This document shows, piece after piece, positions 30,086-60,528 of a stretch of DNA of 64,000 bases. Position numbers and translations under genes: made by a program. A model generated the notes under the pieces. It had not been told where the DNA came from. It ran no database searches and was given only the letters and a program-made list of their open reading frames with translations. Position 1 is the first letter of the stretch. Every line of letters starts with the position of its first letter. This DNA is from a phage, in assembly GCA_033759635.1 (NCBI GenBank), contig GCA_033759635.1_4528.1. One strand, 5' to 3'.

Positions 30086-32797
30086 ATGAAAGAATTTTAC
30101 TTAACGGTTGAACAGATTGGTGATTCAATTTTTGAACGTTACATCGATTCTAATGGCCGTGAACGTACTCGTGAAGTAGAATATAAACCATCACTGTTTG
30201 CTCATTGTCCAGAAAGTCAGGCTACGAAATATTTCGATATCTACGGTAAGCCGTGTACTCGTAAGTTGTTCGCTAATATGCGTGATGCCTCCCAATGGAT
30301 TAAACGCATGGAAGATATAGGACTTGAAGCACTTGGCATGGACGATTTCAAATTGGCGTATTTGTCTGACACTTATAACTATGAAATCAAATACGACCAT
30401 ACAAAAATTCGTGTGGCTAACTTCGACATCGAAGTAACATCTCCGGATGGGTTCCCTGAGCCGTCACAAGCAAAACATCCGATTGATGCTATCACCCATT
30501 ATGACTCAATTGACGACAGGTTCTACGTATTTGATCTATTGAATTCTCCGTATGGTAATGTAGAAGAATGGTCTATCGAAATTGCGGCTAAGCTTCAAGA
30601 ACAAGGTGGTGATGAAGTTCCATCCGAAATTATCGATAAAATCATTTATATGCCGTTCGATAACGAAAAAGAATTGTTGATGGAATATCTCAACTTCTGG
30701 CAACAGAAAACTCCTGTCATTTTGACTGGATGGAACGTTGAGTCATTTGATATTCCATATGTGTATAACCGAATCAAGAATATTTTTGGCGAATCTACTG
30801 CGAAACGTTTATCACCACATCGTAAAACTCGTGTTAAAGTTATCGAAAACATGTATGGTTCTCGTGAAATCATTACATTGTTCGGTATCTCTGTTCTTGA
30901 TTACATTGACCTTTACAAAAAATTCTCTTTTACCAATCAACCGTCGTATTCTCTGGATTACATTTCAGAATTTGAATTGAACGTTGGTAAACTGAAATAT
31001 GACGGCCCTATTTCTAAGCTTCGTGAAAGCAATCACCAACGATATATTTCTTATAACATTATCGACGTGTATCGTGTATTGCAAATTGATGCTAAGCGTC
31101 AGTTCATCAACTTGAGTTTGGACATGGGTTATTATGCTAAGATACAGATTCAATCTGTGTTTAGCCCAATTAAAACATGGGATGCTATTATTTTTAATAG
31201 CCTTAAAGAGCAGAACAAGGTGATTCCACAAGGTCGTTCTCACCCGGTTCAACCTTATCCTGGCGCTTTTGTTAAGGAACCTATTCCAAATCGATACAAA
31301 TATGTAATGAGTTTCGACCTTACATCTCTGTATCCAAGTATTATTCGCCAAGTGAATATTAGCCCGGAAACAATAGCAGGAACGTTTAAAGTAGCTCCAT
31401 TGCATGATTATATTAACGCAATCGCTGAACGTCCTTCAGATGTGTACAGCTGCTCTCCTAATGGCATGATGTATTATAAAGACCGTGATGGTGTAGTTCC
31501 AACTGAAATCACTAAGGTCTTTAATCAACGTAAAGAACATAAAGGTTATATGCTTGCGGCTCAACGTAATGGTGAAATAATTAAAGAGGCATTGCATAAT
31601 CCTAATCTTTCTGTTGACGAACCATTAGATGTTGATTATCGTTTCGACTTCAGTGATGAGATTAAAGAAAAGATTAAAAAGTTGTCTGCTAAATCTCTTA
31701 ATGAAATGTTGTTTAGAGCTCAACGTACTGAAGTTGCAGGTATGACTGCACAGATTAACCGTAAATTGCTCATCAACTCGCTTTATGGTGCACTTGGAAA
31801 CGTTTGGTTCCGTTATTATGATTTGCGTAATGCTACTGCAATCACAACATTCGGGCAAATGGCTTTACAGTGGATTGAACGTAAAGTTAATGAATATCTG
31901 AATGAAGTTTGTGGTACAGAAGGTGAAGCTTTCGTTCTTTATGGTGATACAGACTCTATTTACGTATCTGCTGATAAAATTATCGATAAGGTTGGTGAAT
32001 CTAAATTCCGTGATACCAACCATTGGGTAGACTTCTTAGATAAGTTCGCACGTGAACGTATGGAACCGGCTATTGATAGAGGTTTCCGTGAAATGTGTGA
32101 ATACATGAATAATAAGCAACATTTGATGTTCATGGACCGAGAAGCTATCGCTGGTCCTCCGCTCGGTTCTAAAGGTATTGGTGGATTCTGGACTGGTAAG
32201 AAACGTTATGCATTAAACGTGTGGGATATGGAAGGAACCAGATACGCTGAGCCTAAACTTAAAATCATGGGTCTAGAGACTCAGAAATCTTCGACCCCTA
32301 AAGCAGTACAGAAAGCTCTTAAAGAATGTATTCGTCGTATGCTTCAAGAAGGTGAAGAATCATTACAAGAATATTTTAAAGAGTTTGAAAAAGAATTCCG
32401 TCAATTGAATTATATTAGCATCGCGTCGGTATCTTCTGCGAATAACATTGCTAAATATGATGTAGGTGGATTCCCTGGTCCCAAATGCCCGTTCCATATT
32501 CGTGGAATTCTGACATATAACCGAGCTATCAAAGGTAATATTGATGCTCCACAAGTTGTAGAAGGTGAAAAAGTATACGTTCTGCCTTTACGTGATGGAA
32601 ACCCGTTCGGTGATAAATGTATCGCATGGCCTTCTGGTACGGAAATCACCGATTTAATCAAAGATGATGTACTTCATTGGATGGACTATACTGTTCTCCT
32701 TGAGAAGACATTTATTAAACCACTTGAAGGATTCACAACAGCAGCTAAACTCGATTACGAGAAGAAAGCATCTCTGTTCGATATGTTTGATTTTTGA
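30086..32797 (+). CDS. 43: DNA polymerase gp43 (family B, RB69-type)
   Basis: 903 aa; exonuclease motifs (FDIEV, YNIIDV), polymerase motifs (DLTSLYPS, KLLINSLYGALG, YGDTDS); N-terminus MKEFYLTVEQIGDSIFERYIDSNGRERTREVEYKPSLFAH matches recalled RB69 gp43. Confidence 0.95.
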   Translation: MKEFYLTVEQIGDSIFERYIDSNGRERTREVEYKPSLFAHCPESQATKYFDIYGKPCTRKLFANMRDASQWIKRMEDIGLEALGMDDFKLAYLSDTYNYEIKYDHTKIRVANFDIEVTSPDGFPEPSQAKHPIDAITHYDSIDDRFYVFDLLNSPYGNVEEWSIEIAAKLQEQGGDEVPSEIIDKIIYMPFDNEKELLMEYLNFWQQKTPVILTGWNVESFDIPYVYNRIKNIFGESTAKRLSPHRKTRVKVIENMYGSREIITLFGISVLDYIDLYKKFSFTNQPSYSLDYISEFELNVGKLKYDGPISKLRESNHQRYISYNIIDVYRVLQIDAKRQFINLSLDMGYYAKIQIQSVFSPIKTWDAIIFNSLKEQNKVIPQGRSHPVQPYPGAFVKEPIPNRYKYVMSFDLTSLYPSIIRQVNISPETIAGTFKVAPLHDYINAIAERPSDVYSCSPNGMMYYKDRDGVVPTEITKVFNQRKEHKGYMLAAQRNGEIIKEALHNPNLSVDEPLDVDYRFDFSDEIKEKIKKLSAKSLNEMLFRAQRTEVAGMTAQINRKLLINSLYGALGNVWFRYYDLRNATAITTFGQMALQWIERKVNEYLNEVCGTEGEAFVLYGDTDSIYVSADKIIDKVGESKFRDTNHWVDFLDKFARERMEPAIDRGFREMCEYMNNKQHLMFMDREAIAGPPLGSKGIGGFWTGKKRYALNVWDMEGTRYAEPKLKIMGLETQKSSTPKAVQKALKECIRRMLQEGEESLQEYFKEFEKEFRQLNYISIASVSSANNIAKYDVGGFPGPKCPFHIRGILTYNRAIKGNIDAPQVVEGEKVYVLPLRDGNPFGDKCIAWPSGTEITDLIKDDVLHWMDYTVLLEKTFIKPLEGFTTAAKLDYEKKASLFDMFDF

Positions 32798-32837
32798 TAT
32801 AATGCCAAGGACGGCCAACTAATTAAATGAGAGAAAT

Positions 32838-33473
32838 ATGAAAACTACTCCTATTACTATCGCTATTGACGCAATCATAAAACAAGCTTCTTCTTTGGCC
32901 GCTATGGCCAAAGTAATTAGTCAAAACCCTGCTCGTTATAATGCTATTCTAGAAACTCTTCGACGCCCAGGACTGAGTAATTATGAAAGTCGTGTAATTA
33001 TTACAGGTGTCGGTAAGAATGCTAATATCGCAACTAAAGCTTCCGAGACTTTTGCTTCATTGGGTATTCCTAGCATGTATTTGAACACCGGGCATTATTC
33101 TCATGGTGACGCAGGATTTATTGCACCTAATGATGTATTAGTTCACATCAGTCGTTCTGGTAAGACTGAAGAAATGATAGGTGTTGCTAAACATCTTCGT
33201 ATGATTCGTCCTCAGGTTAAACAGATTCTGTTACATTGTAACCCTGACATTCCACAAGAATACGAAGCTCTTTTTGATTATACGTTCTGTACCGGTATCG
33301 CGGTAGAAGTTGACGAGAACTCTTTAGCTCCGACAATGTCCACTACATTGTTGTTAGCGCTTATCGATACGTTCGCTATCAACCTTTCGTCTGAACGTGG
33401 ATTTACCTCTAATGATTTCCTTAAGTTCCATCCAGGCGGTGCACTAGGTGCCATGTTACGAGGCGAGCAATGA
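32838..33473 (+). CDS. SIS-domain sugar-phosphate isomerase, arabinose-5-phosphate isomerase-like (no CBS domains)
   Basis: 211 aa; VIITGVGKNANIA...FASLGIPSMYLNTGHYSHGDAGFIAPNDVLVHISRSGKTEE...SLAPTMSTT...HPGGALG closely parallels the KdsD/KpsF SIS domain. Confidence 0.7.
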   Translation: MKTTPITIAIDAIIKQASSLAAMAKVISQNPARYNAILETLRRPGLSNYESRVIITGVGKNANIATKASETFASLGIPSMYLNTGHYSHGDAGFIAPNDVLVHISRSGKTEEMIGVAKHLRMIRPQVKQILLHCNPDIPQEYEALFDYTFCTGIAVEVDENSLAPTMSTTLLLALIDTFAINLSSERGFTSNDFLKFHPGGALGAMLRGEQ

Positions 33474-33613
33474 AAGCAATAACAATAGGACTTTTACTAT
33501 TGATGCTTGTCATGACTATCTACTGGAGCTTAACGGCTCCAGTAATGATTCCGACTCTTATAATCGGATGGATTATGATTGGACTACAAGCAAAGTATGA
33601 ATGCTTTAACTAG
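33470..33613 (+). CDS. small membrane protein (47 aa, two hydrophobic helices)
   Basis: Not in track; ATGA overlap with upstream gene; read codon by codon to TAG 33611-33613. Confidence 0.35.
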   Translation: MKAITIGLLLLMLVMTIYWSLTAPVMIPTLIIGWIMIGLQAKYECFN

Positions 33614-33654
33614 AATAGTGTACAATACTCCTACTTACCAATGAGGACCACAAC

Positions 33655-35343
33655 ATGAAAAAAGCTGTTATTCTTGGTGCTGGATTAGCAACTCGTTTAT
33701 ATCCAATTACTCACCATATTCCTAAGGTGCTTGTTAACTATAAACAAGACACTATTCTGAGCAATTTGTATACAATTTATTCTGACCTTGGCGCAGATGA
33801 AATTATTGTAGTAGTTCATTCAAAATTTGCTGAAACTGTTCGAGCTTATTGTGAGCAAGAAGGGTTCAATGTGACTATTCGTACAGTTGATGAAGCGTAT
33901 GGTTCTGCTTATGCTCTTGCTAAATTACACAAAGATTTAGACGGCCATAACGTAATTGTTAACTGGTGTGATATTATTCCTGATTTTGGTTCATGGTCTT
34001 GGAATGTTAACGCAATCTATGTTAAGGGTGATGAATGTCGATATAATTTCGATGGTGAAAATATCACTAACGTAGGTTCAACTGGTGGTAATGTTGTAGG
34101 AATTTATCAGTTCAAAGACTGGGAATTCTATATGGGTTCTACTGATGAGGAAATTCATGAATACTGCAAAGGACGTGATTTCGTAGAATTCCTTTACAGC
34201 GGCGCATTCAATAAATCAGAGCTTATGAATATCATCGACCTTGGTGATATGCCTAAACTTGAAAAAGCTCATGAAGTTCGTGAACTTAATCGTAGTTTTA
34301 ATGCAGTTGAAATTGGTGAAGAAACGGTAACAAAGATTGCTTTAACAGAACAGGGCGTTGCACTTCAAAAAGATGAAGTCAATTGGTATAAGAAAGTTAA
34401 ATCAGATTCAGTTCCACGGATTGTAAGTTATCATCCTGGCGGCCACTTTATTATGGAACGCATTAAAGGTAAGCCGGCATTTGAATATATTAAATCCAAA
34501 TCAAGTCTTGCTCGTCCACAAATTGTTGATGCAATTTTAGATGCACTGAAATTCAGCACAGACATGTATTTTGTAAGTCCTGAAACTGTTCGTCGTGATT
34601 TCACTAAAGAATTCTATACGAAAGTTATTGATCGTTGTGAAAGTATTCAACCATTGATTGATTCATTTGGTAAAATCACACATGTGAACTACACTAAGAT
34701 TGGACGTCTGAAGCCAATGCTGAAGCAAGCTTTAGAACATCTTATTCGTTATCATACCCGTTCTCAGGGACAGTACTCTGTTATTCATGGTGACCCGAAC
34801 TTCAGTAATACTATGATTACTGATAACGGCGAAGTCAAGTTTATCGACCCTCGTGGATATTTTGGCGAAACCAAGATTTACGGGCCAAAATTGTACGATG
34901 AAGCTAAAGTGCTTTATGCTGTTTCAGGTTATGATGAATTCAATGCTAATCCGACCTGGGGACAGTTTACTATTGATGAAACAACTTGTAATGTGACTAT
35001 TAACATCAATCCATTAATTTACAAATATGGAAAGATGAGTTCGTTTAACGAGTATCATCATTTGGCGGTGGCAATTATCTGGATTGCATTAGGTGGTTAT
35101 TTCAAGAATAATCCACTTAAAGCGGTAGCCGCATATTATAAAGGTATGGAACTTCTGACTAAGCAATTACGCAACATGGGCCGTGTACTTCAAGACGGCT
35201 CTATTAGTTATGACGTAGCAGGACCTGTAACGGCTACTCTGATTACAAAAAATCCTGGTAAATGGGTACTAACTGATAAAGAAACTGGTGTTTCCTATCG
35301 TCCAATCGGTGGCGATATCACTCATCAATGGGAACGAATCTAA
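33655..35343 (+). CDS. bifunctional sugar-1-phosphate nucleotidyltransferase / APH-fold anomeric sugar kinase
   Basis: 562 aa; N-terminal ILGAGLATRLYPIT..PKVL NTP-transferase motif; C-terminal Brenner motif VIHGDPNFSNTMI and IDPRGYFG kinase motif. Confidence 0.7.
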   Translation: MKKAVILGAGLATRLYPITHHIPKVLVNYKQDTILSNLYTIYSDLGADEIIVVVHSKFAETVRAYCEQEGFNVTIRTVDEAYGSAYALAKLHKDLDGHNVIVNWCDIIPDFGSWSWNVNAIYVKGDECRYNFDGENITNVGSTGGNVVGIYQFKDWEFYMGSTDEEIHEYCKGRDFVEFLYSGAFNKSELMNIIDLGDMPKLEKAHEVRELNRSFNAVEIGEETVTKIALTEQGVALQKDEVNWYKKVKSDSVPRIVSYHPGGHFIMERIKGKPAFEYIKSKSSLARPQIVDAILDALKFSTDMYFVSPETVRRDFTKEFYTKVIDRCESIQPLIDSFGKITHVNYTKIGRLKPMLKQALEHLIRYHTRSQGQYSVIHGDPNFSNTMITDNGEVKFIDPRGYFGETKIYGPKLYDEAKVLYAVSGYDEFNANPTWGQFTIDETTCNVTININPLIYKYGKMSSFNEYHHLAVAIIWIALGGYFKNNPLKAVAAYYKGMELLTKQLRNMGRVLQDGSISYDVAGPVTATLITKNPGKWVLTDKETGVSYRPIGGDITHQWERI

Positions 35344-35729
35344 TGCACCGTGTAGAAAACATGCTTAATCTTTGTTTTGATGTCGATGATTGTATAACAG
35401 AGTGGAATAACAATCGTGATTACGTGAACTTCAAACCAGACGTCGAAATGGTGTCTGCCATTAATGCCCTGTATGATGCAGGGCATACCATAACGCTTTA
35501 CACTGCTCGTGGTATGAAGTCAGTAGGTCCTGGTCGTATAGCAATTGACATTCTCCCAAGTCTGATTCAGAACTTGGCAAACATTGGCTTGAAGTACCAT
35601 AATTTGCTAACACATAAACCAGTATATGATTGGATTATCGACGACAAAGCTATGCGTCCTGACGAATTCAAAGCTCTTATGAATAAAGGCGAATTCGAAA
35701 CATTTAAATCATATAAACCGAATCTATAA
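35343..35729 (+). CDS. HAD-superfamily phosphatase-like protein
   Basis: 128 aa from ATG 35343; motif I-like FDVDDCIT, TLYTAR, WIIDDKA. Confidence 0.45.
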   Translation: MHRVENMLNLCFDVDDCITEWNNNRDYVNFKPDVEMVSAINALYDAGHTITLYTARGMKSVGPGRIAIDILPSLIQNLANIGLKYHNLLTHKPVYDWIIDDKAMRPDEFKALMNKGEFETFKSYKPNL

Positions 35730-35783
35730 TAATTTAAGTAAGACCTGCAAAAACCATCGCATCAATTAACGCGAGATGCAAAA

Positions 35784-36944
35784 ATGAATACTTTTAAAAT
35801 CGGAACGAATTTTGATTTAGCTCTTCTTGATAAAATCGTAGAGCTCAATAAAACTTATCCTAATAGCTTGATAAACGAAGTATACGGCTCTACAAGAGAA
35901 ATGGCTTTTGTAGCAGCCAGACCTGATTTTAGGCTTCCTGACGTTGACAAAAAGATGTTAGAAGATTACGTTAAACGTTGTAACGAATTAGGTATTTGCT
36001 TTAACTATACACTCAACACGATAAATCCTGGTTCAAAAAGAGAACTAGTCGAGTGGAAGAAGAAAGCTATTCAGGATTATGTTCAGTATCTTTGGTCAAT
36101 AGGCGTATGGCGTATTACTATCGCTAACCCTGTTGTTATGGAAATTGTTCGTGAAGTCAATAAAGACATTGAGATTGAAGTTTCAACAATTCTACATGTC
36201 GATGCTGTAACTCAAATAAAATACTTACATGACCAATACAATATCAAAAAGGTCTGCTGTGGAATTCATAAGAACCGTTCAGTTTCTTTCCTGAAGCGTG
36301 CAGCAGAGTTTTGCAATAAGAACAATATAATATTTGAAGTTCTTGTAAATGAGTTCTGTTCTAATGCTGGTAAAGGGTATACAACACATTGTAGTTATCG
36401 TGACTCTTGCTATATTTTCCATAGTACTGATGTTACAGCTGATGATGCTAAATCCTTAAATGGATATCCAATGCAACACTGCATTAAAGCTCGTGATACA
36501 GACCCATTTAACTGGTTGAGAACTCGTTTTGTTCGTCCTCAAGATTTGAAACTTTATAATGATATTGGTATCACTCAATTCAAAGTTTCAGGACGTACAG
36601 GTAGCACAGACTACATTTTGAAAGTTCTTGAAGCATACGCTTCTGAAAAGTTTGAAGGTAATTTGTTAGAACTGTGGAAGCCTTTAGAGACTATTTTCAC
36701 TCTTGAAAATGAAACTGAGTTTTCACATACAGTAAATATTGAAACCTCTTTGTTAGATGGCTTTTTAGAAAAAAGGTGGTTCAGACATCCAGATTTTGAT
36801 TGTGCTAATGAAATCTGTGGATCAACGTGTACATATTGTGAAAGATATTATAAACGTCAATTATCTAAAAACGGGTTAGCAGAAAACTCTATATCTATTA
36901 TTGATATAACTAACTCTGATGACGCTCTGAGGTACCCGGAATGA
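35784..36944 (+). CDS. U32-family (peptidase U32 / RlhA-TrhP-UbiU-like) protein, putative Fe-S enzyme
   Basis: 386 aa; FNYTLNT and ITIANPVVMEIVREV..DIEIEVST resemble the U32 barrel; C..SYRDSCY resembles the U32 Cys signature; extra C-x4-C-x3-C-x2-C cluster near C-terminus; recalled motifs only. Confidence 0.5.
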   Translation: MNTFKIGTNFDLALLDKIVELNKTYPNSLINEVYGSTREMAFVAARPDFRLPDVDKKMLEDYVKRCNELGICFNYTLNTINPGSKRELVEWKKKAIQDYVQYLWSIGVWRITIANPVVMEIVREVNKDIEIEVSTILHVDAVTQIKYLHDQYNIKKVCCGIHKNRSVSFLKRAAEFCNKNNIIFEVLVNEFCSNAGKGYTTHCSYRDSCYIFHSTDVTADDAKSLNGYPMQHCIKARDTDPFNWLRTRFVRPQDLKLYNDIGITQFKVSGRTGSTDYILKVLEAYASEKFEGNLLELWKPLETIFTLENETEFSHTVNIETSLLDGFLEKRWFRHPDFDCANEICGSTCTYCERYYKRQLSKNGLAENSISIIDITNSDDALRYPE

Positions 36945-37180
36945 TTTCTAGAAAAACTTTTAATCACCAACTTAATGAAGAGATTTTGACTATTAAACTG
37001 AACACTAACGAACAAATTCTTAAAAAGGCCCTTATGGGCCTGTTTGAAACTAAAGCGGCTAAAGCGATTAAAGAACCTGTTCAACTAGAATACTATGCCG
37101 ACGCATTCCTTCATAGTGTCCTTGGAAGTATTGATGCCGAAGCTCTACGTTATATCAACATCGCTAAGAAATTCAAATAA
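36941..37180 (+). CDS. hypothetical protein (79 aa)
   Basis: ORF track; ATGA overlap. Confidence 0.5.
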   Translation: MISRKTFNHQLNEEILTIKLNTNEQILKKALMGLFETKAAKAIKEPVQLEYYADAFLHSVLGSIDAEALRYINIAKKFK

Positions 37181-37203
37181 GCTTTATGAATTGAGTATAT
37201 AAT
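37179..37203 (+). promoter_or_regulatory. candidate middle promoter upstream of gene 42
   Basis: MotA-box-like AAGCTTTA 37179-37186, about 11 nt, TATAAT 37198-37203. Confidence 0.4.
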
Positions 37204-37221
37204 AACTGTATTGAGGTAAAC

Positions 37222-37938
37222 ATGGGAAAACATAACACAATGAAATATATTAAAGCCGCAGATTTTCAATCCGCATTTAAAGCTGTCAATCGTGAAATTT
37301 TAGAAAACCCGGAATTCGTAACTGATTCTCGTATTGGACGTTGTAATGAAATTGGGTCTATGACAGTAGTTGTTGACACTCCATCATCATTCAAAATGAC
37401 CGACCCACGTATTAATCGCATCTCTTATGAATATGCTGAAGATTTCTGGAAGTTTATGATTTCTGGTGGTACTGATGCAGAAGAAGCATTTAAGGCATAT
37501 CCTAATGTCGCTAAATTTATTTCTAAACCAAAATCAGATGTTTTGCCTGCAAACTTCAACACTTTCTACGGTCCTCGCATTGCGGCCCAATTACCAGCTC
37601 TTCTAAAAGAACTTAAAGAGAAACCTAACTCTCGAAGAGTTGTGTTCCAAATTCTAGAAAGTTCTGATCAGGCTTTGCTTGATTCGGACGAAACACTTGA
37701 ATATCCATGTACTGACTCGGTAACTTATTATATTCGTGATGGTAAGCTTTATACTCACTGTCATATGCGTTCCCAGAACTGTGCTGTTGTTATGCAGTTG
37801 GATTTTTATCTCCAAGGAAAATTACTTCATTATATCGCTAACGAATGTGGTGTAGAAGTTGGTGATTATACTCATACCATGGTAAGTGCCCATGTGTTTG
37901 AACGTGATTTTGATTATGTTAAAGGATTCCTTGACTAA
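37222..37938 (+). CDS. 42: dCMP hydroxymethylase (thymidylate synthase fold)
   Basis: 238 aa; active-site region YPCTDSVTYYIRDGKLYTHCHMRSQN parallels recalled T4 gp42 (MCTNTVQYLIRD..NMRSND); position between 43 and uvsX. Confidence 0.75.
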   Translation: MGKHNTMKYIKAADFQSAFKAVNREILENPEFVTDSRIGRCNEIGSMTVVVDTPSSFKMTDPRINRISYEYAEDFWKFMISGGTDAEEAFKAYPNVAKFISKPKSDVLPANFNTFYGPRIAAQLPALLKELKEKPNSRRVVFQILESSDQALLDSDETLEYPCTDSVTYYIRDGKLYTHCHMRSQNCAVVMQLDFYLQGKLLHYIANECGVEVGDYTHTMVSAHVFERDFDYVKGFLD

Positions 37939-38837
37939 TGGCTATTTTCCGCGTACCAATCTTGAGTATGCGGTCTTATGAAACTGGACAGTATGCTATC
38001 CTTAAGGATGGCAACTTCCAACTTCATTTGCACCGTGCTAATCCAGGCGATGTGATTACATATCCACGTAATGCATCTGATATTAAAGAATGTGAACGTC
38101 TTTTCCCAGAATTTAAGTTTGTTCCATTATGGTATAAAGATAACGCGTATAACACTCGTAAATATTTCTGGTCTGAAAATGAATTTGTGGTTGATTCATT
38201 AATTGCTTATTATGATTGTGATTTTCTAATCACAGATATCACTGGATATGATGGCGCTTTTGACGTAGAATTCAATTTCAATATCACTGCAGACCCTAAT
38301 AAACCACGTTTTTATATTGATGAATTCTTAAAAACCGACATGTTGTCTGTTAATCGTTCACTTCAAACTACTGTGTTGAATGAACGTCAAAAAGAAGTGC
38401 TGGTTAACGCAGGTGCAGATGGTAATAAGATTATCGTAACGCAGAAAGTTATACGTCCTTCCGTCATGCAGCGTCTTGTAGGTGATTTGGCTCCTATTCA
38501 TCTAGATGGTATTTTTCATCCATTTCGAATTAGTGACCCATGCTATCGTTTTGAACAAGTTGTTGAATGCGCAATTCAATTAGGTCAACCGCTTTATATA
38601 ACTGATCCAAATAATAGCTTCGACAGAAATAAGTATCCTGAAGAAGCGCTGATTCGAATTTTTAATCCAACTAAAACTGAGTACTATCAAATTCTTAAAG
38701 GACGTCCGAAGATTCAATATTTCGAAAATCCTGAAGAAGTATTCCATCCAGGTCTTGGTGAGTTCATCTACTTTAATGCTTTAATTTCTTCGCCGTATAA
38801 TATACCTAAATACGAAGATGTCGTAATCGAGGAATAA
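37938..38837 (+). CDS. hypothetical protein (299 aa) at the position of T4 beta-gt
   Basis: ORF track; no resemblance to recalled T4 beta-glucosyltransferase. Confidence 0.6.
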   Translation: MAIFRVPILSMRSYETGQYAILKDGNFQLHLHRANPGDVITYPRNASDIKECERLFPEFKFVPLWYKDNAYNTRKYFWSENEFVVDSLIAYYDCDFLITDITGYDGAFDVEFNFNITADPNKPRFYIDEFLKTDMLSVNRSLQTTVLNERQKEVLVNAGADGNKIIVTQKVIRPSVMQRLVGDLAPIHLDGIFHPFRISDPCYRFEQVVECAIQLGQPLYITDPNNSFDRNKYPEEALIRIFNPTKTEYYQILKGRPKIQYFENPEEVFHPGLGEFIYFNALISSPYNIPKYEDVVIEE

Positions 38838-38838
38838 A

Positions 38839-39387
38839 ATGGCTAAAATTATTTTAGTAGATGGCCCGGATAATGCCGGTAAAACAACTTTCATTAATGA
38901 CATAATGGAAATTAGTGAAAGATATGTAAAGATTGATTTCCCTAAACGAACAGTTGATGGACGTTTCGATGTTAAGTCTCGAAATGAAGTTGGTTGTTTC
39001 GAAACGATGTTGAATTATTTAGACCCTACTAAGATTTATCTGTTAGACCGTGGATATATTAGTAACTGGGTTTATGGACGTATTCGACAAGATGCGGACT
39101 CGGTTCTTGACGTTTATGAACAGGACTATGTTCGTCTTTGCCAAAACCATGATGTGTTCACAATTATTTTAACACGTAACGAAATGACTGAAAGTTTTGA
39201 AGACGACCTTATTACTTTGTCTTCATTCGGTTTTAATACAGTCATTTCACATTTTGAAGAGTTTGCAATTCATAACAAAATCCAAACATATCAATTACTT
39301 AATCATGATGGTGCTAACAAAGTTATAGGATTTAATGCAAGCGAACGTAATGGTTTGATTACAGAAATCATCAAATGGGCTCGTTAA
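38839..39387 (+). CDS. P-loop nucleoside/nucleotide kinase-like protein
   Basis: 182 aa; Walker A LVDGPDNAGKTT; LDRGYIS resembles the DRY/DRS motif of dNK/TMPK kinases. Confidence 0.5.
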   Translation: MAKIILVDGPDNAGKTTFINDIMEISERYVKIDFPKRTVDGRFDVKSRNEVGCFETMLNYLDPTKIYLLDRGYISNWVYGRIRQDADSVLDVYEQDYVRLCQNHDVFTIILTRNEMTESFEDDLITLSSFGFNTVISHFEEFAIHNKIQTYQLLNHDGANKVIGFNASERNGLITEIIKWAR

Positions 39388-39400
39388 GAGCCATTTAAAG
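39373..39400 (+). terminator. terminator-like imperfect hairpin before uvsX
   Basis: atgggctc-gtta-agagccat with a one-base bulge, followed by an A/T-rich tract. Confidence 0.3.
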
Positions 39401-39485
39401 TTTTAAATGCTGTATAACCCTTAGTATATAATCATCTTATCTTTTAAACATGAGTAAAATATAATGATGCCTATGGAAAAATACA

Positions 39486-40658
39486 ATGTCTGATTTAAAA
39501 TCTCGTCTGATTAAAGCTTCTACTTCTAAAATGACTGCAGACTTGACTAAGTCTAAGCTGTTTAATAATCGTGATGAAGTCCCTACTCGTATTCCGATGT
39601 TGAATATTGCACTAGGTGGTGCTCTGAATGCAGGATTGCAATCAGGCTTGACTATTTTTGCTGCACCTTCTAAACATTTTAAAACATTGTTTGGACTAAC
39701 TATGGTTGCAGCTTATATGAAGAAATATAAAGATGCAATCTGTTTGTTCTATGACTCAGAATTCGGTGCTTCAGAATCTTATTTTCGTTCAATGGGTGTC
39801 GATTTAGACCGTGTAGTTCATACTCCTATTCAATCTGTCGAACAACTTAAAGTTGATATGACTAATCAGCTTGACGCTATTGAACGCGGTGATAAAGTTA
39901 TTATCTTTATCGATTCAATCGGTAATACTGCATCTAAGAAAGAAACCGAAGATGCATTGAACGAGAAAGTCGTAGGTGATATGTCTCGTGCTAAGGCACT
40001 TAAATCTCTTTTCCGTATTGTAACTCCTTATCTGACTATTAAAGATATTCCATGTGTTGCAATCAACCATACAGCAATGGAAATCGGCGGATTGTATCCT
40101 AAAGAGATTATGGGCGGTGGTACAGGTATTCTTTATTCTGCCAACACGGTATTTTTTATCTCTAAACGTCAGGTTAAAGAAGGTACAGAATTGACCGGTT
40201 ATGACTTCACGTTGAAAGCGGAAAAATCTCGTACAGTTAAAGAGAAATCTACTTTCCCGATCACGGTTAATTTTGATGGCGGTATTGACCCATTCAGTGG
40301 CTTGTTAGAAATGGCAACTGAAATTGGTTTTGTAGTTAAGCCTAAAGCCGGGTGGTATGCTCGTGAATTCCTTGACGAAGAAACAGGCGAAATGATTCGT
40401 GAAGAGAAATCATGGCGTGCTAAAGCTACTGATTGTGTAGAATTCTGGGGACCTTTGTTTAAACATAAGCCTTTCCGAGATGCAATTGAAACTAAATATA
40501 AACTAGGTGCTATCTCTTCTATTAAAGAAGTTGATGACGCTGTTAACGACCTTATTAATTGCAAAGCAACAACTAAAGTTCCTGTTAAAGCTTCTGATGC
40601 TCCGTCTGCAGCAGATATTGAAAACGACCTTGACGAAATGGAAGATTTCGATGAATAA
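39486..40658 (+). CDS. uvsX: RecA-like recombinase UvsX
   Basis: 390 aa; N-terminus MSDLKSRLIKASTSKMTADLT matches recalled T4 UvsX. Confidence 0.9.
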   Translation: MSDLKSRLIKASTSKMTADLTKSKLFNNRDEVPTRIPMLNIALGGALNAGLQSGLTIFAAPSKHFKTLFGLTMVAAYMKKYKDAICLFYDSEFGASESYFRSMGVDLDRVVHTPIQSVEQLKVDMTNQLDAIERGDKVIIFIDSIGNTASKKETEDALNEKVVGDMSRAKALKSLFRIVTPYLTIKDIPCVAINHTAMEIGGLYPKEIMGGGTGILYSANTVFFISKRQVKEGTELTGYDFTLKAEKSRTVKEKSTFPITVNFDGGIDPFSGLLEMATEIGFVVKPKAGWYAREFLDEETGEMIREEKSWRAKATDCVEFWGPLFKHKPFRDAIETKYKLGAISSIKEVDDAVNDLINCKATTKVPVKASDAPSAADIENDLDEMEDFDE

Positions 40659-59427: not shown

Positions 59428-60528
59428 ATGAAAGTTATGTTTATCCCATCTCGCGCAGTCCCATTTAACCCAGAACGTGTACAAGGTGGTCTTGAAGCAG
59501 TACATTTAAATGTGTTGAAATATCTTGTGTCCATCGGTGCTGATATTGATTATATCGGCTTTGATAATGACACATTTGGTGATTGGAAGGTTAATCATCA
59601 TCCTGTTGGTCATCTGACTAAATTCAGTCTAGGTATGAGTTATACTATGGCTCGTAAGATTGTTGAACTAGCCGGCATCCATGAATACGATTTCGTTGTT
59701 ACTATGGAACCGACTAAACTAACCGTTCAGGCAATTAAAGACGCAGGTCTCTCTAAAGTTCATAAGAATTTTATGGCAACACCATTTGAACCGGTATCTC
59801 GTGGCATTGTTCAAATTTGGGACCAGACTATTCAAATTCATAAGAACGGTGGTAAGAGTTATGCTCCTACTAAAGCCTTCCGTGAATTTGAACGTAAATA
59901 TTGTTATATGACTTCAGGTCTGACTGACAAAATTGATTATGATTATTGGCGAGCAAATCCGTTGTTTGAAGCCGAAGATTATCCGGTTATTTGTTTGAAT
60001 GAGAAACATGAAGTTCTTCCGGCGACTGATCTGATTATTAGTGCACAACGTTATGACACTAAAATGCGTCGTACTGATGTTGCTCTTGAAGCGATTAAAG
60101 CACTAGGCGAAAATGGTATTGGTTATTGTCCTAGTAAATGGGCACCACCGGCTAAGTATCCTGTTATTATTGATGCTCCACACAGTGAAATCATGGAACG
60201 TCTTAAAACAGCTAAAGCACTTATCAATACGTGTCCTGACACGGGTACGGTAGAGAATAGTTCTATTGAAGCCATCTCTAAAGGTGTCCCTGTGATTCAG
60301 TTAGTTTTTAAGGATTATCCGCACGCGACATTCGAATATGACCCAGATACTGTGCGTGTAGAAATTGATTCCTCTACTCCTAAGAAAGAAGTAGTTGCGC
60401 TTTACACAAAAGCTGTATTAGAATTCACTGACACATACGAAGCTCGAGTTAAACGTGCTGAAGCAGTATGGAAGAAGTATAACCGAGATGCGGTTGTTGC
60501 GATGTGGGATAAAATCTTCACAGCGTAA
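59428..60528 (+). CDS. GT-B fold glycosyltransferase (GT4-like), candidate DNA hydroxymethylcytosine glycosyltransferase
   Basis: 366 aa; N-terminal MKVMFIPSRAVPFNPERVQGGLEAV resembles the GT4/GT5 GGL(E/A) motif; lies between gene 39 and rIIA.1/rIIA. Confidence 0.65.
   Translation: MKVMFIPSRAVPFNPERVQGGLEAVHLNVLKYLVSIGADIDYIGFDNDTFGDWKVNHHPVGHLTKFSLGMSYTMARKIVELAGIHEYDFVVTMEPTKLTVQAIKDAGLSKVHKNFMATPFEPVSRGIVQIWDQTIQIHKNGGKSYAPTKAFREFERKYCYMTSGLTDKIDYDYWRANPLFEAEDYPVICLNEKHEVLPATDLIISAQRYDTKMRRTDVALEAIKALGENGIGYCPSKWAPPAKYPVIIDAPHSEIMERLKTAKALINTCPDTGTVENSSIEAISKGVPVIQLVFKDYPHATFEYDPDTVRVEIDSSTPKKEVVALYTKAVLEFTDTYEARVKRAEAVWKKYNRDAVVAMWDKIFTA

Follow-up and report, generated by a model that had tools for sequence, protein, structure and literature searches.

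What do two phage genes do that stand where T4 encodes its beta-glucosyltransferase (b-gt)? The genes lie in a 64,000-nucleotide stretch of phage DNA (NCBI GenBank assembly GCA_033759635.1, contig GCA_033759635.1_4528.1), which we call the window; they follow a thymidylate synthase (ThyA) homologue, precede uvsX, and encode a protein of 299 residues, here GT1, and one of 182 residues, here the kinase. A preliminary description, made from the nucleotide sequence, had left both genes unassigned, yet both are already in the literature: Lee et al. (NAR 2026, PMC13326640, Table 1) list the RB69 counterparts, as predictions, under the names ‘arabinosyltransferase 1’ (gp46:47) and ‘nucleotide kinase’ (gp45), the latter without discussion or test. 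The gene assignment is thus known as a prediction, and what we add is comparative evidence. With some reserve, we lean towards the view that the ThyA homologue and the two genes end an RB69-type cluster for arabinosyl-5-hydroxycytosine, in which GT1 would be the base-proximal transferase acting on 5-hydroxycytosine (5hoC) and the kinase would serve modified deoxycytidine monophosphate (dCMP).

Arabinosylated 5hoC shields a large set of coliphages that are therapeutic candidates, and related phages of Acinetobacter, Klebsiella and Serratia, from restriction enzymes and CRISPR nucleases. Engineering or stripping the modification requires knowing which gene makes the base–sugar bond and what the extra kinase does. 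The comparative evidence narrows the options, in that the trio of synthase, GT1 and kinase is kept independently of the sugar genes and some relatives of the kinase are fused to an MBD4-like domain.

The gene trio and the modified base

The two open reading frames (ORFs) had been delimited exactly, each from an ATG on the plus strand (Table 1), and the remark that they fill the slot of T4 b-gt, from a gene 42-like gene to uvsX, is correct as to position. The order in the window is ThyA homologue (37222-37938), GT1, kinase and uvsX (39486-40658); that of T4 is 42, b-gt, segA and uvsX. The RB69 equivalents of the stretch are RB69p048, p047, p046 and p045, followed again by uvsX. There is no rival long ORF on the opposite strand, and an Rfam search of 36500-40000 gave zero matches. 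The stop codon of the ThyA homologue overlaps the start of GT1 (TAATG, the ATG beginning at the last base of the stop codon), the kinase ORF begins one base past the GT1 stop, and in GAGGAATAAAATG a Shine-Dalgarno-like GAGGA falls within the 3' end of the GT1 ORF. From this overlap, the abutting ORFs and the internal GAGGA we conclude that 37222-39387 is a translationally coupled three-gene unit. This tight joining, together with the invariant columns that the relatives of each protein share (below), marks both ORFs as real genes.

The stop codon of the kinase gene lies within a 5-bp GC-rich hairpin, GGCTC-GTTAA-GAGCC (39378-39395, plus strand), and one database record annotates a terminator there. 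Its folding energy is ordinary (z -1.04) and a simple terminator scan missed it; the scan of 32700-39600 for promoters and terminators showed no excess over the shuffled expectation.

The first gene of the unit had been taken for gene 42, the hydroxymethylase. Instead, 236 of its 238 residues (99%) are the same as in RB69 gp48, which has been found experimentally to make 5-hydroxy-dCMP (5hodCMP) from dCMP, to bind flavin and to take its oxygen from O2 (Lee et al., NAR 2026, PMC13326640), and on this identity we regard the window protein as a flavin-dependent dCMP 5-hydroxylase. It also matches the structures of the HY126 protein (PDB 9iqc, 9ir2 and 9iqu) over its full length (E 6e-162). The substitutions D169N and N177D were read by eye from an ungapped GKL..RSQN..D alignment, the automatic local alignment with E. 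coli ThyA having taken a shifted register; D169N is called from the ungapped alignment and from the 99% identity to gp48.

In RB69 DNA, beta-D-Araf-(1-3)-alpha-D-Araf (Araf, arabinofuranose) sits directly on the oxygen of 5-hydroxy-2'-deoxycytidine (PMC13326640). Mono- and di-arabinosyl-deoxycytidine have been confirmed in another Mosigvirus, in a study that calls the earlier assignment of arabinosyl-hydroxymethylcytosine erroneous (PMC13390438); that older proposal is due to Thomas et al. 2018 (PMC6024577). As the base is 5-hydroxycytosine carrying arabinofuranose, and not hydroxymethylcytosine, hydroxymethyl-dCMP, which had been put forward for kinase assays, is the wrong test substrate.

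A predicted glycosyltransferase in the b-gt slot

The 299-residue protein had been said to have no recognisable motif, and at the level of sequence this holds. It belongs to no Pfam or NCBIfam family, and its sole family assignment is phrog_3891 (‘unknown function’, E 1e-155); neither the single sequence nor a 60-sequence profile found anything usable in Pfam, NCBIfam or the PDB sequences. A search of 5.8 billion proteins yielded 138 relatives with 31 invariant columns, all of them from phages or metagenomes and all named ‘hypothetical’. The fold was seen only by structure prediction, a check that had been recommended for this ORF. The AlphaFold2 (AF2) model (predicted local distance difference test score, pLDDT, 95.3) is built from two Rossmann-like domains separated by a cleft, the arrangement of GT-B glycosyltransferases, and in a Foldseek comparison with viral models the fold matches are glycosyltransferases. 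The C-terminal half of GT-B enzymes is the nucleotide-sugar binding part, and in this half of GT1 R197, K246 and H270-P-G are invariant and E275 is conserved at 85%. In GT4 enzymes an R/K pair and an E-x7-E motif serve the diphosphate and ribose. This motif is not kept as such in the GT1 family, where about 50% of members have D/E at its first position and the nearby H-P-G, which never varies, stands in its place.

The predicted structure indicates that GT1 is a glycosyltransferase, which would carry out the modification step after hydroxylation of the base. Standing in the position of b-gt, it would be a functional analogue of that enzyme, replacing T4 b-gt in both slot and role. The suggestion that the two genes act in modified-nucleotide metabolism or in a second DNA modification step was sound in so far as both belong to a cytosine hypermodification cluster and the 299-residue protein is a glycosyltransferase by fold, but the hydroxymethyl chemistry attached to it was wrong. 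GT1 is not a diverged b-gt orthologue, since hhalign of its profile against T4 b-gt showed no homology (probability 0.1%), nor is it a paralogue of GT2, the other glycosyltransferase of the window, for which hhalign likewise showed none.

GT1 shares 178 of 181 residues with RB69 ORF047c and 115 of 116 with ORF046c (98-99%). The RB69 record NC_004928 (24597-25497) splits the gene into these two ORFs by one extra T at alignment column 544, reading ...CTTGTAGTGTGA... against ...CTTGTAGGTGA... in the window. Lee et al. attribute the split of gp46:47 to a sequencing error (PMC13326640), which matches the extra T.

A thymidylate kinase-like protein

The 182-residue product contains both of the P-loop kinase-like motifs pointed out in the preliminary description, LVDGPDNAGKTT and LDRGYIS, and 180 of its 182 residues (98.9%) are identical in RB69p045. 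It matches phrog_761 (‘thymidylate kinase’, 6e-45). Searching the PDB with the single sequence returned only P-loop noise (RecA, thioredoxin), whereas the profile gave weak matches to thymidylate kinases (TMPKs). The Pfam family PF02223 is not matched by the kinase at E<=0.1, although 12 of 23 family members match it weakly (best 2e-4), and the score with NCBIfam TIGR00041 is 16 bits, below the curated TMPK cut-off of 83.

Twenty-seven close relatives share 37 invariant columns. In the alignment with M. tuberculosis TMPK, for which a sequence identical to 1g3u was used, GPDNAGKT pairs with GVDGAGKR, FPK with FPR, and DRGYISNWVY with DRYVASNAAY, the positions on the kinase side being invariant in the family. 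The P-loop Asp, FP(K/R), the arginine of DR, and the Asn and Tyr that match M. tuberculosis N100 and Y103 are all kept, as expected for a TMPK fold. In the M. tuberculosis enzyme, Asp9, Arg95, Asn100 and Tyr103 contact a free deoxynucleotide at its 3'-OH, 5'-phosphate, base and 2'-position. Because these residues for binding a deoxynucleoside monophosphate (dNMP) are retained, the 182-residue protein looks like a real dNMP kinase. Judged by its sequence it is nucleotide-monophosphate-kinase-like, and a modified dNMP would be its most sensible substrate.

The family has features of its own. TMPKs supply a basic residue for the ATP phosphates from the P-loop (class I) or from the lid (class II). 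Here the P-loop position is Asn12, which never varies, and the lid (113-125, low pLDDT) combines an invariant R113 with an equally invariant acidic pair, D122-D123. The segment from FPK to the DR strand is about 32 residues long, compared with about 55 in the M. tuberculosis enzyme. The clade is narrow: when 1.84 billion representatives were searched exhaustively with the profile, only 299 proteins scored E<=1e-3, and 45 scored E<=1e-10.

Conservation and linkage of the trio

We scanned 58 viral loci with GT1 relatives using profiles, and counted linkage over the 44 that have a ThyA homologue and enough flanking DNA. Both GT1 and the kinase occur in all 44. The synthase and GT1 genes are adjacent in 40 of the 44 and the kinase directly follows GT1 in 33; at 29 loci synthase, GT1 and kinase follow one another in this order and their ORFs overlap or abut, and four loci have an extra gene behind the synthase.

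In 11 T4-like loci (L006-L008, L012-L016, L021, L026 and L027) the kinase gene lies a few kilobases upstream but still within the cluster, between the HAD phosphatase and the U32 or synthase genes. Identity to the window proteins at these loci is 39-46% for the kinase, 53-69% for GT1 and 74-81% for the synthase, and the relocated, diverged kinase may be a distant homologue that came in as a replacement.

The trio persists in much more distant loci (L002, L031-L044 and the jumbo-size contig L001), in which identity to the window proteins is only about 40% for GT1 and about 31-35% for the kinase. In L002 and L031-L044 no SIS, AfhE or HAD arabinose genes occur within 10 kb of the trio, and a flavodoxin-like gene stands alongside it. 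Since the trio occurs without arabinose genes nearby, we place the kinase on the base side of the pathway and not in sugar activation. A place for it in the sugar arm, phosphorylating UTP (uridine triphosphate) or arabinose, was dropped for the same reason.

The 5hodCMP synthase homologue of distant clusters has a Flavodoxin_2 or FMN_red-type gene beside it (L001:1-523, L002:6739-7293, L031-L044, L063:9068-9613). Such a neighbour fits a dedicated flavin reductase for a flavin-dependent hydroxylase; the Mosigvirus cluster of the window is without one.

Near the most distant pairs of GT1-like and ThyA-homologue genes (24-28% identity) there is another small P-loop protein, with an N-terminal GYKNSGKT (L057:2932-3477, L058:461-1006, L060:8039-8608). 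Its homology to the 182-residue kinase is not demonstrable (hhalign below 10%) and it was excluded from the counts; it may be a non-orthologous kinase in the same role.

Some relatives of the kinase (P0179, P0180, P0185, P0187 and P0189; L063:8001-9074, L064:127-1092) continue at the C terminus into an MBD4-like HhH-GPD domain. This domain, whose matches to MBD4 structures have E 1e-9, reads HGxGKYxxDSxRI, with the catalytic-Asp motif GxGKYxxDS kept; the relatives that carry it score E 1e-18 to 1e-11 and sit in clusters of the 5-hydroxycytosine type. The fusion in L063 is accompanied by a D169N-type synthase and by FMN reductase, SIS and AfhE-like genes, and that in L064 lies directly upstream of a GT1-like gene. 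Such fusions could point to action at the level of DNA, or could simply join a repair glycosylase to the kinase. The window itself contains no MBD4-like ORF.

The arabinose added by GT1

Searching 50,697 phage records with tblastn, we found GT1 in 349 (phages of Escherichia, Acinetobacter, Klebsiella, Shigella, Serratia, Enterobacter, Proteus, Yersinia and others) and the kinase in 344, a near-identical distribution. GT2 was found in only 212, which fall into phages of Escherichia and Shigella, with 156 records at >=95% identity (Mosigvirus-type), and Acinetobacter phages with two copies each, and about 40% of the records with the synthase, GT1 and kinase genes are without it. The GT2 of the window is essentially identical to the ‘phage HY126 glycosyltransferase’ of PDB 9iqz and 9ir0 (E 2e-248), which places the window phage very close to HY126.

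The number of arabinoses per base is two in RB69, phage NP and Bas46, three in DLP3 and one in the Prodigiosinella phage LC53 (PMC13326640, PMC13390438), and Thanatos, which is mono-arabinosylated, has a single, syntenic glycosyltransferase (PMC13326640). Compared at the level of phage groups, the spread of GT1 and GT2 fits the sugar numbers as far as these are known. As GT1 is the universal transferase of the two and GT2 restricted, we infer from phyletic pattern, fold and synteny that GT1 is the base-proximal transferase, as Lee et al. 2026 had predicted.

Proposed pathway and alternative explanations

In the pathway that we favour, the ThyA homologue would hydroxylate dCMP at C5, a reaction shown experimentally for the 99%-identical RB69 protein. 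The 182-residue TMPK-fold kinase would convert 5hodCMP to the diphosphate, and host nucleoside diphosphate kinase and the phage polymerase would place 5-hydroxycytosine in DNA. The isomerase, the bifunctional kinase/uridylyltransferase and the phosphatase encoded upstream would supply uridine diphosphate (UDP)-arabinofuranose, from which GT1 would move the first, base-proximal alpha-arabinofuranose to the cytosine 5-hydroxyl, a step suggested by its fold, synteny and phyletic pattern, and the distant 366-residue GT2 would attach the second arabinose. That a phage kinase is needed for flux follows from E. coli supplied with the synthase alone, which has mere traces of 5-hydroxydeoxycytidine (5hodC) in its DNA, and a clear peak once a phage dNMP kinase is added (PMC13326640).

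Several observations weigh against this pathway. GT1 is acidic (isoelectric point, pI, 5.05, net charge -11, family median -10.7), which is unexpected in a transferase that binds DNA, and T4 b-gt has a pI of 9.05 and a charge of +6; yet UvsX is acidic too, and we have for that reason treated net charge as a weak discriminator between glycosyltransferases that bind DNA and those that bind nucleotides. Single DLP3 glycosyltransferases, including the GT1 orthologue gp79, gave zero arabinosylation of 5hoC-DNA with UDP-arabinofuranose or UDP-arabinopyranose, and Lee et al. were unable to tell whether the first sugar goes onto the mononucleotide or onto DNA (PMC13326640). The kinase falls under the Pfam and NCBIfam thresholds for TMPKs, and its lid offers one conserved Arg and an acidic DD in place of a basic lid. 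Finally, RB69 gp159, the T4 gp1-type dNMP kinase, converts 5hodCMP to the diphosphate in vitro (PMC13326640), so that a second 5hodCMP kinase seems redundant; even so, 344 of about 349 genomes retain it.

Some of these points have led us to consider that glycosylation might precede replication: GT1 would arabinosylate free 5hodCMP, the kinase would be dedicated to arabinosyl-5hodCMP, a bulky substrate that the gp1-type kinase would be unable to handle, and the glycosylated dCTP would be polymerised, only the second and third sugars being added on DNA. The coupled and conserved gene order synthase, GT1, kinase mirrors this order of reactions, and the acidity of GT1 beside the basic b-gt, as well as the retention of a kinase where a gp1-type enzyme already acts on 5hodCMP, would be in keeping with it. 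The shorter segment between FPK and DR would, we infer, free space around the base. The GT1 orthologue alone is inactive on 5hoC-DNA, and the authors of that work explicitly leave the option open (PMC13326640). If true, this would be, as far as we know, the first sugar modification that a phage makes on the nucleotide, and it would explain both the second dNMP kinase in about 340 genomes and the inactivity of GT1 on 5hoC-DNA. However, all phage DNA sugar modifications characterised to date are, to our knowledge, added after replication. E. coli incorporates 5hodC itself into DNA and the later arabinoses go on at the DNA level (PMC13326640); a missing partner or unsuitable conditions could explain the negative result with GT1 in vitro; and the model has to assume that the phage polymerase would accept a glycosylated dCTP. 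We consider glycosylation before replication unlikely, though not negligible.

We find it improbable that the kinase-fold protein works on DNA or as an accessory subunit of GT1, whether as an ATP-dependent partner that presents a flipped 5-hydroxycytosine or as a DNA or sugar kinase. There is a precedent in the P-loop 5-hydroxymethyldeoxyuridine (5-hmdU) DNA kinase of thymidine-hypermodifying phages, and the MBD4-like HhH-GPD module fused to kinase relatives is one that flips 5-substituted pyrimidines out of DNA. The failure of GT1 by itself on DNA in vitro would also fit, and the published nucleoside analyses included a phosphatase, so a phosphomonoester would have escaped them (PMC13326640). 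But the TMPK residues for the 5'-phosphate and 3'-OH of a free dNMP are kept, and at the 11 loci where the kinase lies away from GT1 it has diverged further than GT1 has, which argues against an obligate, co-evolving complex. The MBD4-like domain may just as well be a repair glycosylase in its own right, for instance one for deaminated 5-hydroxyuracil, and glycosylation of an aromatic hydroxyl requires no earlier phosphorylation. Just as little credence can be given, in our view, to more ordinary functions, with the 182-residue protein as a spare dTMP kinase that boosts dTTP and GT1 as the second arabinosyltransferase, the base–sugar bond being made by GT2. Database records do name the kinase ‘thymidylate kinase’, and GT2 (9iqz) is the only phage glycosyltransferase of the pathway with a solved structure, which suggests that it is the biochemically tractable arabinofuranosyltransferase. 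Yet the absence of GT2 from some two-fifths of the records with the trio means that it cannot be the universal first transferase, no canonical TMPK reaches E 1e-3 with the kinase profile, which retrieves only its own clade, and the kinase is essentially confined to the neighbourhood of 5hoC synthase and GT1 genes. In T4-type phages, moreover, dTMP is already phosphorylated by gp1.

Genome setting and other genes of the cluster

The window DNA is RB69-like and about 98% identical to many Mosigvirus genomes (Shf125875, JS09, phiC120, LF82 phages), and on this resemblance we assign the source phage to Mosigvirus. The genes of the cluster and the distant GT2 gene are collected in Table 1; the activities of AfhE, the HY126 counterpart of the bifunctional protein, are given second-hand in PMC13326640.

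Table 1. Genes of the predicted arabinosyl-5-hydroxycytosine pathway in the window
Feature	Position	Strand	Basis
SIS-domain arabinose-5-phosphate isomerase (RB69 gp55 orthologue), opens the sugar-nucleotide arm	32838..33473	+	RB69 annotation, synteny, homologues in related loci; role proposed in PMC13326640
Bifunctional nucleotidyltransferase and sugar kinase (RB69 gp52:53, HY126 AfhE-like), predicted UDP-arabinofuranose maker	33655..35343	+	NTP_transferase and APH-like Pfam matches, phrog_4098
HAD-type phosphatase (RB69 gp51, HY126 AfhF-like)	35328..35729	+	phrog_1238, synteny; role per PMC13326640
Peptidase-U32-family protein (RB69 gp50), 386 residues	35784..36944	+	PF01136 7e-11, weak UbiU match
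79-residue ORF inside the cluster (RB69 gp49 orthologue)	36941..37180	+	phrog_8601 2e-50; only some related loci have one
Thymidylate synthase homologue, 5-hydroxy-dCMP synthase, first of the coupled trio	37222..37938	+	PF00303 2e-15; RB69 gp48 236/238; 9iqc/9ir2/9iqu 6e-162
GT1, 299-residue GT-B-fold glycosyltransferase (RB69 ORF047c+046c, gp46:47 orthologue), predicted base-proximal alpha arabinofuranosyltransferase	37938..38837	+	RB69 identity 98-99%, AF2 fold
182-residue thymidylate-kinase-fold P-loop kinase (RB69 gp45 orthologue), proposed modified-dCMP kinase	38839..39387	+	98.9% to RB69p045, phrog_761 6e-45
GT2, 366-residue glycosyltransferase (RB69 ORF003c/gp3 orthologue), predicted second (beta) arabinosyltransferase, 20 kb from the cluster	59428..60528	+	9iqz/9ir0 match

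The U32 protein is listed by Lee et al. only as a ‘sugar or heterocycle reductase’ (RB69 gp50) and is not discussed (PMC13326640). Its family includes the O2-independent hydroxylases RlhA, which makes 5-hydroxycytidine in 23S rRNA, TrhP, which makes 5-hydroxyuridine in tRNA, and UbiU/UbiV (PMC5727448, PMC6599085, PMC6747719, PMC10990095). Ten Cys residues, among them those of C340-x4-C-x3-C-x2-C, are invariant in 22 homologues. At five distant loci (L050, L052, L054, L056 and L059) a U32 homologue flanks a GT1-like gene and there is no ThyA homologue within 10 kb; in L050, L052 and L056 the GT1-like gene has a small TMPK-like gene as its immediate upstream neighbour. As the flavin-dependent synthase requires O2, the U32 protein may be an alternative, anaerobic cytosine C5-hydroxylase.

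Comparison with known systems

GT1 shows no sequence-level difference from RB69 gp46:47 or DLP3 gp79; the ORF is intact in the window and split in the RB69 record. T4 b-gt, with 351 residues, is basic and places glucose on hydroxymethylcytosine, whereas the acidic GT1, with 299 residues, is predicted to place arabinofuranose on 5-hydroxycytosine, forming an ether directly on the ring. Its identity to retaining GT-B enzymes of the GT4 type (sucrose-phosphate synthase 6kih, BshA 6n1x, PimA 2gej, T4 alpha-glucosyltransferase 1y6f and the HY126 glycosyltransferase 9iqz) is 7-15%; it is some 60-100 residues shorter than its structural neighbours and matches neither Glycos_transf_1 nor Glyco_trans_4 of Pfam.

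Compared with the thymidylate kinases of M. tuberculosis (1g3u), vaccinia (2v54) and S. tokodaii (2plr), the 182-residue kinase has a much shorter helical segment covering the base. At the P-loop position that is Arg in class I TMPKs it has an invariant Asn, and unlike TMPKs it occurs almost only in 5-hydroxycytosine modification clusters. In its proposed role it would resemble the T4 gp1-type dNMP kinase (RB69 gp159), which feeds modified dCMP to the deoxynucleoside triphosphate pool. The 5-hmdU DNA kinase of thymidine-hypermodifying phages, reportedly the subject of work by Iyer and colleagues (NAR, 2013) and by Lee and colleagues (PNAS, 2018), is likewise a P-loop kinase encoded beside a thymidylate synthase homologue in a base-hypermodification cluster. 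Unlike that enzyme, the 182-residue kinase keeps the dNMP motifs of TMPKs, and the final glycoside has no need of a phosphate leaving group.

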